Shown one piece after another: positions 1-57,470 of a stretch of DNA of 64,000 nt; positions within the stretch are counted from its first letter, which is position 1; every line of letters starts with the position of its first letter. The notes below the pieces were generated by a model. That model worked only from the letters and a program-made list of their open reading frames with translations. It did not search any database and had not been told where the DNA came from. Made by a program: the position numbers and the translations under genes. The stretch comes from Octopus sinensis (Eukaryota): NCBI RefSeq assembly GCF_006345805.1, contig NC_042999.1, forward strand, positions 49,662,001-49,726,000, written 5' to 3'.

Positions 1-100
1 AAGTGAAAAAGTCTTTAACATTTCGAGCCTACGCTCTTCCGCAGAAAGGAACACGGAAAGAAACAAGGAGAGAAAATAAAGAATGTGTAGTGGCTAGCGA
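1..100 (-). mobile_element. Fragment of short hammerhead-bearing repeat (PLE pLTR-like family H1), cut by window edge
   Basis: Minus strand 48..13 reads CTTT CTGCGGA A GAGC GTAG GCTC GAAAT GTT AAAG; the same repeat occurs at 43070-43240, 49985-50115 and 57170-57470. Confidence 0.6.
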
Positions 101-104
101 CACT

Positions 105-270
105 ATTGGCTTCTTTCAGATTTCTTCTACTAAATCCACTCACAAGGCTTTGGTCGGCCCGAAGCTATAGTAGAAGACACTTTCCCAAGGTGTCACGCAG
201 TGGGACTGAACCCGAAACCATGAGCTTGAAAAAACAGCAAGCTTCTTACCAAATAACCACGCTTGTGCTT
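105..270 (-). mobile_element. tRNA-derived CORE-type SINE (family A, octopus OR-like), head portion
   Basis: Matches the head of the full copy at 27170-27568 (GGTTCAGTCCCACTGCGTG B-box region, CCTTGGGCAAGTG CORE-like motif). Confidence 0.75.
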
Positions 271-1077
271 TAAGTAAAATTTACTTAAATACAAATACAG
301 CTACATGTACATTAGCATAGATGATACAAATTTATTATTAAAAGTGTACTGTGTAAGATATTGTGAAACACAGCCGCCCATTAAACTAGTCTGCCGACTG
401 AGGGACTTTGAAGTTCTTGCTCATAAATTTGTGCGAATTAAAAGAGGTTCTCGACCATCAGTGTTAGGAAACGAATGTAGATTCGTTTGGACGCTGTTAA
501 TAAATTATTTGGGTTAACTTAATGTTTACGTTGAATGTTAGTGTAACAGCAAGTAGTACAACAGAGGTTTTGTTCTTTTTTAGCATTAATCAAAAATATG
601 CGATGTGAGACCATAGCAATATAGGTGTCACTTTAGCGAGCGGGCTACTAGCCCATTCACTCTTTAGCGGGAGGCCTAACCCTAAGCCAACACTATTCCT
701 GACCTGGACCATGTCATTTCACCGCGTGGACTACGGACAGTGCGTTAGAGTGCATGCTGATGTGACACCGTAATATTTATATACGATGTAATCGATAATC
801 GTATGGATTCTTAGCCTGACAATGCCATGTCTTTCAAAAAAAAAAAAAACAATGAAAATGTTTCATCTCACCACTGTTCCGTTTTTATTAATAAAAAAAA
901 TAAAAGAATTATCTGAATCCAAAGTAAAATTTTCTTGTCTTCGCCATAGTGTTTGTTAGAGAAGTTATAAAAGTATTTTATTCTTATTAAACACAATAAA
1001 TTATTTGGTTTATTTTCATATCTCATAGCAACCCACTCTGAGAAACACTGATGTAATACATTTTAAAGTTATAACGA

Positions 1078-1392
1078 TTAACGTCGCCCTTTTCAAGCCT
1101 GGCCAGGCTCATGGGTCCGGTTTCCGGTTTCTGTGTTGTATGTGTGCCCCCCTCCCGGATGGACGGGACGCCAATCCATCGCAGCGTTACTCAAGAAACA
1201 GTAAGAGAGAGTGAGAGAAAGTTGTGGCGAAAGAGTACAACAAGGGTCGCCACCACCCCATGCCGGAGCCTCGTGGAGCTTTTAGGTGTTTTCGCTCAAT
1301 AAACACACACAACGCCCGGTCTGGGAATCGAAACCGCGATCCTTCGATCGCGAGTTCGCTGCCCTAACCACTGGGCCATTGCGCCTTCACTT
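1078..1392 (-). mobile_element. tRNA-derived SINE with V-domain-like body (family C)
   Basis: Minus strand: A box TGGCCCAGTGG, B box GTTTCGATTCC, then CTGCGATGGATTGGCGTCCCGTCCA resembling the V-SINE domain; other copies at 25030-25185, 34555-34855 and 37025-37312. Confidence 0.75.
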
Positions 1393-2719
1393 TTAAATTT
1401 ATAAATCATCGGTAATGTTAGTCGAAGTAATGAACGGGTAAAGGATATGTTGTAGGAAGGAGAATGAAAGTTAAAATATATGAACAATAGTATGAAATTA
1501 ACATCATCCCAGAGGCTGCAGGTTGGCAATGTCATTAAAGCATTGGATTGAATGTACACTGATTTCCAACTCTCTGCACACTGATTTCAAATCCCGGCCA
1601 GAATAATTTTGCTTTCACCCTTTTGGAAGTCAAAATACAAGTACTAATCTAGAGCAATGGATTGACAGAATTGTTCGTAGGGTGTTGGGCCAGATGCCTT
1701 GCGGAAGCTCTTTCGGCTGTTGTGGCAGCAACGCCTGCGAGGAACCTCATGCCAACTGTTTTGGCCCAAGTCTGTGGTTTTTCCGTTGTATATAGCGTGT
1801 AGAGAGGACACTTGCATTCACGGGCAACTGCCAGTCTTCCTCGAAAAATCTTACCTAAGCCTTCTCATGCAGATATATGGCCAGACTTGACACACAGAGG
1901 CCGTCTGAGTATCGTCTCGATCAGTAATAAAGGATATTATTATCATTATTATCAAATGGGAGAGTTCGATAGAGAATGACTAGTAGGCGGAAAATATAAA
2001 AGTATTATTAAAGATATCTGACCTTTTAATTAATTTCAACATTCTTACAACTAATATTTTTACATAATCACAAATACAGCTAATATAACTTGCCTTTAGC
2101 ATATCTATATCAATTCCTCTAATTAACAACCTCCAATTTTAATTCATTTCCTTTTCCAGAAAATTTTAATATCAATATAGGTATAATTAAGCTAACAACT
2201 ATTACCGAAGCCAAATGGTACAATGGAAAAAGAAGCTATGTATGCTTCATTATTAAATGTTTCGCTGTTAGGAATATACGATGTTTCTGCTTAATATCGT
2301 CTGCCCTACAAAACTACCAAAAGTTTAGAGAGACACAGAGGTGATTTTACGGGATCTTCACTTGCTAGAAATAGAAGATCTGTCTCCTTCAAATACTCTA
2401 CAATCTTAGTACTATATACATTAGAAATTCAGCACTATATTCAATTTCATCCTATTCGTATTTTGTAATATAAGTGGAGGTGTAATTTTTTGTACCCCTC
2501 CACCCGTCACTAATTTCATCTTCTTTTCTAATAAATATGTAGATATCTGATCCTTTCGTGGTACATCTTCGACCTAGTCTCTGATTGTCTCTCACTCTAC
2601 TTCAGTAGTACAGTGATTGATATCCTTCTCTTCATCCAATATATTCAACCACCAGAATTGTCCCACTGTTTTTGTACATTTTGTTGTTTTCATTGATTAC
2701 TTGTGGATCATCTCTCTCT

Positions 2720-56559: not shown

Positions 56560-56798
56560 CTGGCACGGGTGCCTTTTACATGCCACTGACACAGTTGCCT
56601 TTTACATGTCACTTGAACAGGTACTTTTTACATGTCACTGACATGGATGCCTCTTATGTTTCACTTGGTACTGGTACCTTTTGTGTGTCACTAGCAGGGG
56701 TGCCTTTCACTTCTCATCCATACAGGTACATTTTATGTGTTATTGGCACAAGTGCCTATTACATGTCACAGGCAAGGATGCCAATTTCGTGTCACTGA
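56560..56798 (+). repeat. Diverged tandem array, ~25-bp unit TGCCTTTTACATGTCACTGGCAC
   Basis: About nine copies; unit resembles the reverse complement of the family D internal repeat GTGCCGGTGGCACGTAAAAAGCA. Confidence 0.75.
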
Positions 56799-57032
56799 GA
56801 CTCTCTCTCTTTACTCTTTTACTTGTTTCAGTCATTTGACTGCAGTCATGCTGGACCACCACCTTTAGTTGAATAAAATCAACCTCAGAACTTATTCTGT
56901 GTAAGCCTAGCACTTAATTTCTGAACTACTAAGTGACATAGACGAAGACACACCAGCATTGGTTGTCAAGCAATGGTGGGGGGACAAACACATACATAAA
57001 TATATATATATATATATATATATATATATATA

Positions 57033-57157
57033 CATCACCGTGATCACCGTGACCGACCAGGCTATCAGATGTTGCTACACATCGCTGGTCACAATGCGTT
57101 TCGCATTGTTTTAGCCTTTAAATGATGCCACCCCGCTGGCTAAGCGTGCAGGCCAAT
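57033..57157 (-). mobile_element. Short retroposon 3' end inserted in (TA)n
   Basis: Hairpin ACAATGCG-TTT-CGCATTGT and a tandem tail (CACGGTGAT)2 on the minus strand; TA tracts on both sides. Confidence 0.45.
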
Positions 57158-57169
57158 ATATATATATAT

Positions 57170-57470
57170 AACGGGAAGCTTTATGAAAATAGACAAAAGA
57201 CGAAGGCAGGTGGAAAACAAACAAACAATTGTTTTAGTATGGCGCTCAGGAAATATAAATAAAACAAGTCTTTAACGTTTCGAGCCTACGCTCTTCAACA
57301 GAAAGATACACAGAGAGAAAAAAACACAGAAAGAAGGAGAGAAAAAAAATGCGTGCAGTAACTAACGAACCAACATGGCGATCTGATTTCGGCCAGAAGT
57401 CAAAGATCAAACATGAGACGCGAGAGCGAAATTAGGGGAGATAATAGGGTTGAGTGACCAGCTCCAACAT
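57170..57470 (-). mobile_element. Family H1 repeat with best-preserved minimal hammerhead-like motif
   Basis: 57306..57269: TCTTT CTGTTGA A GAGC GTAG GCTC GAAAC GTT AAAGA. Confidence 0.68.

Follow-up and report, generated by a model that had tools for sequence, protein, structure and literature searches.

A repeat-borne minimal hammerhead-like motif with uridine at core position 6 in the genome of Octopus sinensis

The minimal hammerhead ribozymes of metazoan Penelope-like elements (PLEs) are marked by an additional nucleotide that separates positions 9 and 10.1, a G10.1-C11.1 pair and a palindromic stem III (i.e. positions 15.2-16.2), and solo dispersed copies are the norm for them (Cervera and de la Pena 2014, PMC4209133). 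These motifs show no activity as monomers and little as dimers (PMC4209133, PMC6765202). All 56 PLE representatives printed in Figure S3 of the former study have an adenine at core position 6 (A6), though the descriptor that retrieved them had required A6 (PMC4209133). PLEs have been reported to occupy 6.8% of an octopus genome in a repeat survey whose main text leaves ribozymes unmentioned (PMC13282606), and a squid genome paper gives 235 Rfam hammerhead matches without detail (PMC6962438). The present analysis concerns a stretch of 64,000 bases of Octopus sinensis (contig NC_042999.1, positions 49,662,001 to 49,726,000; hereafter the window) and a family of dispersed repeats within it whose hammerhead-like motif has uridine in place of A6 (U6). 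The window has a G+C content of 37% and is repeat-rich, harbouring dispersed repeats as well as many stretches of (TA)n and (CA)n. Judged from sequence, the U6 family is a real, high-copy, multi-species repeat with the PLE-type minimal hammerhead layout, and its new point is a U fixed at position 6.

Five motifs sharing one layout had been reported in a preliminary description of this DNA, and a direct check of the sequence found all five at the positions, on the strands and with the layout described (Table 1). A descriptor that allows any base at positions 6 and 7, drawn up after the motifs had been seen, gave three intact matches in the window, and 300 dinucleotide shuffles gave none. The best copy (57269-57306, minus strand) consists of a 5-bp stem I (UCUUU/AAAGA), the core CUGUUGA, an extra A, a stem II of GAGC/GCUC with a 4-nt GUAG loop, GAAA, CG and UU; its predicted cut site lies between 57274 and 57273. 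All five copies have a stem I of 4-5 bp (paired cells, 88%), and each also has the extra A between A9 and G10.1 and the GAAA and UH elements. Stem II is opened by G10.1-C11.1 and is 4 bp long in four of the five, the exception being the copy at 50075, rightly described before as decayed, which has a G.U and a broken stem. The palindromic stem III is retained as CG in two of the five window copies (57269 and 53999) and reads UG in 13-48 and CA in 43109 and 50075.

This layout matches the published PLE consensus in every feature but position 6. The extra A, previously likened to a peculiarity of the CChMVd(+) hammerhead, is instead an ordinary hallmark of PLE minimal hammerheads (PMC4209133). 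None of the four copies of the main family (H1; i.e. 13-48, 43109, 50075 and 57269) has A6, their cores reading CUGCGGA, CUGUCGA, CUGUUGA and CUGUUGA, respectively. The copy at 53999 belongs to a sister subfamily that keeps A6 and carries U4C and G8A. This copy aligns without a gap across the core with the H1 copies, which fixes the register of the motif. A general scan found no window motif combining an unmutated core with complete stems, bearing out the expectation that a CUGANGA search misses the family. Rfam likewise failed to recognise it: 103 window matches were returned at E<=5, nearly all TA-repeat noise, with the hammerhead not among them. A profile built from the five copies detected no sixth copy in the window (best other score 19.5 bits, mostly TA runs). 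A motif pattern scan of viral contigs gave no matches, and no phage record matched the motif. Two metagenome matches (L001 and L002) were rejected as chance, having only a 19-base pattern in common with the motif, no core or stems, and a G+C content of 54%.

Variation across the family was assessed with contigs from four of 24 listed public runs (i.e. X1, organism A; X4 and X17, organism B; X8, organism D; three organism labels), aligned to 57060-57470 at 80% likeness. The numbers of contigs aligned per run were 32,996, 21,294, 8,790 and 3,556, which also cover the adjoining repeat (57060-57156) and should not be read as copy numbers. Variants were tabulated from 4% of depth upward and, as contigs discard rare variants, the table reflects master lineages rather than single copies. 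At position 6 (57298) no letter but U reached 4% in any of the four runs or under any of the three labels, indicating that loss of A6 is a family-level trait and not random decay, as had been proposed. The C6 formerly counted as part of this trait is private to copy 13-48 and lies below 4% family-wide; the family variant is specifically U6. No variant at or above 4% was listed in the four runs for C3, U4, G5, G8, A9, the extra A, stem II, its loop, GAAA, C15.2, G16.2 or U16.1 either. Position 7 (N7) varied, with A at 11-22% and G at 8-9% of depth and the remainder mostly U, as did position 17 (H17), with A at 55-87%, otherwise U, and G17 not listed. The outermost base of stem I (57306) also varied (5-14%). 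N7 and H17 are the positions left free in the hammerhead consensus CUGANGAH...NUH (PMC4209133). The chance of two variable sites among 37 bases (57269-57305) falling on free positions was put at between 0.0015 (exactly these sites) and 0.03 (any of seven lenient sites), an estimate that is post hoc and excludes 57306. As several N7 letters occur beside a single U6, the pattern suggests that U6 predates the N7 subfamilies and was retained.

Depth at N7 was 1.9-12x that at single sites on either flank, and hundreds of contig loose ends were observed at 57266 and 57305; these ends reveal additional subfamilies that carry the motif between other flanks. That the motif is common to subfamilies whose flanks do not align at 80% speaks against a neutral relic, in which one master element with a disabling A6U was amplified by chance and the seeming constraint stems from few recent masters, contig bubble-popping and reference bias. 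The recurrence of the same pattern under three organism labels and the three common states of N7 also count against such a relic, which we consider improbable. Some of the data do fit it: of the 283 element positions no more than 24 show any variation, so that a 37-nt stretch with two variable sites is not extreme, contigs lose rare variants, and the window copies are visibly decaying.

Folding of the 38-nt fragment was then predicted. The U6 core was predicted to pair with the GAAA strand (U4-G16.2, G5-C15.2 and U6-A15.1, plus U7-A14 where position 7 is U), and copy 57269-57306 to form a closed hairpin of -10.2 kcal/mol. The probability of the U6-A15.1 pair was 0.98 with U7 and 0.42-0.81 with other N7 letters (across N7/H17 letters). 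Restoring A6 in silico brought the probability of the 6-A15.1 pair to about 0, although for some A6 variants closed folds of another kind were predicted. In the predicted closed fold N7 is paired, whereas C3, G8, A9, G12, A13 and U16.1 are unpaired.

This conversion of an open core into a predicted helix of 3-4 bp would fit a dead hammerhead kept for another job, where A6U abolished cleavage in the master element and either the closed hairpin or its sequence became a binding signal by which a PLE protein recognises RNA for copying; the loss of cutting may even have aided the spread of the family. Published work in which A6 changes are strongly deleterious agrees with this possibility, as do the Naiad PLEs, which lack canonical hammerheads and can outnumber hammerhead-bearing families (PMC8557442), and the non-cleavage functions left open by Cervera and de la Pena (PMC4209133). 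The variation itself follows another logic. N7 varies despite its pairing in the closed fold, and the unpaired core bases are invariant, a pattern expected of catalysis and not of a hairpin. A dead fold with another function is regarded as the main alternative, tentative and well short of an even chance.

Because conservation follows catalytic rather than hairpin logic, we give about an even chance to a model in which the motif is an attenuated, dimer-dependent hammerhead carried by a non-autonomous PLE derivative. In a lone copy, U4-G5-U6(-U7) would pair with (A14)-A15.1-C15.2-G16.2 and close the core. Pairs of copies, whether joined in a tandem or acting in trans, would swap their self-complementary ACGU, forming stem III and freeing the core, and the paired copies would cleave slowly after H17, perhaps aided by protein or Mn2+. 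Multimeric RNA of the element would thereby be processed and host transcripts with a lone copy spared, whilst the reverse transcriptase and endonuclease of an autonomous PLE would copy the element RNA from its 3' end into TA microsatellites. A natural hammerhead with C at position 6 (A6C) cleaves slowly, below 0.1 per min (PMC3088659), and prefers or is rescued by Mn2+ (PMC7151607).

The motif resides in a repeat whose longest copy is about 298 nt long, with contig depth declining toward 57453 and dropping beyond it. The tail between motif and (TA)n is T-rich and spans about 100 nt. The 3' ends coincide in all four copies that have one, and the 5' ends are ragged, lying at the motif (50110), about 40 nt upstream of it (43069) or far upstream (57453). 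Reverse transcription that starts from the 3' end of an RNA leaves ragged 5' ends and a common 3' end, and the ragged 5' and common (TA)n 3' ends seen here are the pattern left by such 3'-initiated copying. PLE insertions are described as heavily 5'-truncated and partly tandem or inverted, with a (TA)n bias in some clades (PMC8557442). One X1 contig joins 57453 back to 57156, suggesting a head-to-tail unit of about 298 nt; head-to-tail arrays were not found within the window. The monomer is non-coding and its length falls within the 200-400 nt of retrozymes of the kind without long terminal repeats (non-LTR). This high-copy repeat of about 300 nt is likely to be a non-autonomous derivative of a PLE terminal repeat.

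Downstream of stem I, at a distance of 15-30 nt, lies a CCUGAGC box that the A6 sister copy at 53999 has retained despite its divergence; the base that follows is G in the 57269 and 53999 copies and A in the 43109 and 50075 copies. The GAGC of this box might base-pair with the 3' strand of stem II, a fold that was not predicted in the two copies folded. The TA tail of the 57269 copy is adjoined by a different high-copy repeat (57060-57156), in which, unlike the motif, CpG transitions reach about 20% in the contigs. Just upstream of the longest copy is a tandem array (57475-57904; 112-bp unit, 3.8 copies, 91% matches), in which a run of ATACTAATAC resembles part of the repeat tail.

A different origin or register, i.e. 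an unrelated element resembling a short interspersed nuclear element (SINE), or a core shifted to UUGAAGA (U3.G8, A6 kept), was judged very unlikely. The shifted heptamer does exist in both U7 copies; this register abolishes stem II as well as the pair that closes stem I, does not work with A, G or C at N7, and is at odds with the gap-free alignment of the A6 sister copy through the core. The shifted register was rejected on structure. A SINE-like origin is disfavoured by ARAGORN, which found no tRNA-like head in the window. Two negative searches are in keeping with an origin outside the PLEs. Pfam was run against the 148 longest of the 323 stop-free reading frames in the window and detected neither a reverse transcriptase nor a GIY-YIG domain in them. 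Exact 8-14-base strings from the repeat gave no relevant match to the Naiad, Chlamys and Hydra PLE 3' ends in the supplement of Craig et al. 2021, a form of matching that fails over line ends and with diverged families. A string search of the supplement of an Octopus vulgaris repeat paper also gave no relevant match, the consensus library of that paper being deposited elsewhere and lying outside the search (PMC13282606).

Several results weigh against cleavage by paired copies in a PLE derivative, beyond the absence of a PLE reading frame among those scanned and the low variability of the element as a whole. Co-folding of two copies gave a closed-type duplex and not the active dimer, so that the energy model does not show the proposed switch. 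The A6C change in another ribozyme lowered the rate from 0.30 to 3.6e-6 per min at 0.3 mM Mg2+, i.e. by five orders of magnitude (PMC7151607), and in a full mutational scan of a type III hammerhead the single and double mutants of the CUGA turn were all low, except for the C3-G8 swap (PMC9901934). Pair covariation among the five window copies, which had been put forward as a check, was not significant, with 99 of 500 shuffles scoring as high. The contig table under-represents scattered mutation, as three of the four H1 window copies have lost the CG of stem III and no variant at or above 4% appears there. The single X1 joint, finally, may have arisen from nothing more than a TA run lying upstream of the element.

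Among the top full-text matches of a literature search there was no natural U6 hammerhead family, though the PLE-variant survey of Lunse, Weinberg and Breaker 2017 may contain such sequences; the passages searched in PMC11014351 have nothing on position 6. The boldest form of the proposal is that this is the first natural hammerhead family with U6, active, with its monomer locked by the core change and cleaving as paired copies, and one of the commonest repeats of the genome, common to related species. We regard this as possible and rather doubtful. If true, large ribozyme families would be hidden from every CUGANGA-based census, and some PLE groups reported to be without hammerheads may carry such variants. 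The U6 family is a natural experiment on whether the very weak PLE hammerheads need to cut RNA at all: a successful multi-species repeat that has lost a core adenine and apparently kept the other core bases. If the family cuts, the hammerhead has fewer invariant bases than thought, the monomer lock would be a new gate on self-cleavage, and censuses that rely on descriptors fall short; if the family does not cut, PLE hammerhead folds would be kept for something other than catalysis.

Table 1. Positions of the U6 repeat, its copies and the other hammerhead-like sites within the 64,000-base window.
Feature	Position	Strand	Basis
Longest repeat copy, about 298 nt (5' region, polypyrimidine stretch, motif, T-rich tail, (TA)n)	57156..57453	-	self-BLAST, contig depth
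(TA)n run, 3' end of element	57156..57170		sequence
Box CCUGAGC(G) downstream of stem I	57243..57250	-	alignment, 4/4 copies with tail
Intact U6 minimal type I hammerhead-like motif	57269..57306	-	sequence, numbering, folding
Core position 6, U replacing the normally invariant A	57298	-	contig variants, 4 runs
5'-truncated copy; motif 43109-43146, core CUGUCGA, stem III CG decayed to CA	43069..43248	+	sequence, self-BLAST, alignment
Copy cut by window edge; motif 13-48, core CUGCGGA (private C6), stem III UG	1..75	-	sequence, self-BLAST
Decayed copy truncated at motif 50075-50110; core CUGUUGA, stem II broken, stem III CA	49972..50110	-	sequence, self-BLAST, folding
Sister-subfamily copy; motif 53999-54033, A6 kept, core CCGACAA (U4C, G8A), (TA)n end	53899..54108	-	sequence, alignment, profile
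Unrelated inverted repeat of about 1 kb, arms 86% identical	52616..53598		self-BLAST, folding
Plausible degenerate long-stem-II type I motif, core UUGACGA (U3)	52784-52857	-	descriptor, folding
Plausible, more decayed inverted twin of the 52784 motif, core UUGACAA	53357-53430	+	self-BLAST, folding
Unrelated broken minimal hammerhead; canonical core, 5-bp stem II, no NUH or stem I partner	51943..51986	-	sequence, folding

Four further sites in the window had been described as carrying other hammerhead folds. Two of these, at 52784 and 53357, are plausible though degenerate hammerhead motifs in opposite arms of an inverted repeat, whereas the site at 51943 is broken and that at 9947 was rejected, having G6, broken stems and no consistent stems I and II. 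The two plausible motifs have a long stem II without G10.1-C11.1 and a 3-bp palindromic stem III, and only that at 52784 has an intact 5-bp stem I. A relaxed long-stem-II descriptor matched once in the window and at least once in five of 150 simulated windows. The 3' tails of the arms (52616-53598) point outward, toward a TA run in one case, an arrangement also found at inverted PLE ends; the structure could also be a foldback DNA element. With an additional inverted segment (52525-52605 with 53089-53169), the inverted repeat of about 1 kb forms a complex foldback (52525-53598) whose immediate neighbours are a long TA array and the 53999 copy.

Mariner transposase domains were the sole noteworthy Pfam matches in the scanned frames. 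A mariner with terminal inverted repeats and a stop-broken transposase (43249-44530) lies in, and starts inside, the TA tail of the 43109 copy; its closest protein is 92% identical, and relatives of the mariner domains are animal transposases from many taxa. A second mariner remnant is located at about 11988-12851. Other repeats include a young tandem triplication (45919-46899; 328-bp unit, 95% matches), an inverted pair of 246 bp (48351-48595 and 49525-49770; 96% identical, about 930 bp apart) that is possibly a young miniature inverted-repeat transposable element, and a tandem duplication of about 300 bp (10559-11208). The last of these holds a frame like that of a long interspersed nuclear element (LINE), which we take to resemble the end of a LINE protein; a homologue search with it found none. 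At least three abundant SINE-like families occur window-wide (e.g. 19125-19512, 27169-27562, 15599-15911 and 33880-34104), often nested in one another and in TA runs.

The closest described systems are the PLE minimal hammerheads, with which the octopus motif shares a U-rich lead-in, a short stem I, the extra nucleotide, G10.1-C11.1, a 4-bp stem II with a 4-nt loop, GAAA, a loopless palindromic CG, NUH and an occurrence mostly as dispersed single copies. The closest printed row is the Neptune element of Acropora digitifera, with a 4-bp G..C stem II, a 4-nt loop, CG and an extra A (PMC4209133). The octopus family differs in its U6 and in a monomer predicted to close as a hairpin; as far as sequence can tell, its motif is a variant of the PLE minimal hammerheads and not a member of them, since it has their layout and lacks their core. 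The Schistosoma Cercyon PLEs offer a precedent, their U3-A8 minimal hammerheads being a family-level core variant that the standard descriptor missed; that change is compensatory and keeps the 3-8 pair, whereas A6U is without evident compensation (PMC4209133). The non-LTR animal retrozymes resemble the octopus repeat in their non-coding unit of about 300 nt, low G+C content, a single type I motif in each unit, proposed derivation from PLEs and dispersed monomers, and differ in having canonical motifs, tandem arrays and abundant circular RNA (PMC7229834; bioRxiv 10.64898/2026.07.22.740005). The octopus repeat, for its part, has a minimal non-canonical motif and single, 5'-truncated window copies, and a single contig joint points to tandems. 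The A6C hammerhead of phage Bcep176 has likewise lost A6 naturally while its core is normal elsewhere, and it cleaves slowly but detectably, with a preference for Mn2+ (PMC3088659, PMC7151607). That case is a single phage example with C6, whereas the octopus motif has U6 on a minimal scaffold, fixed across a high-copy animal family.

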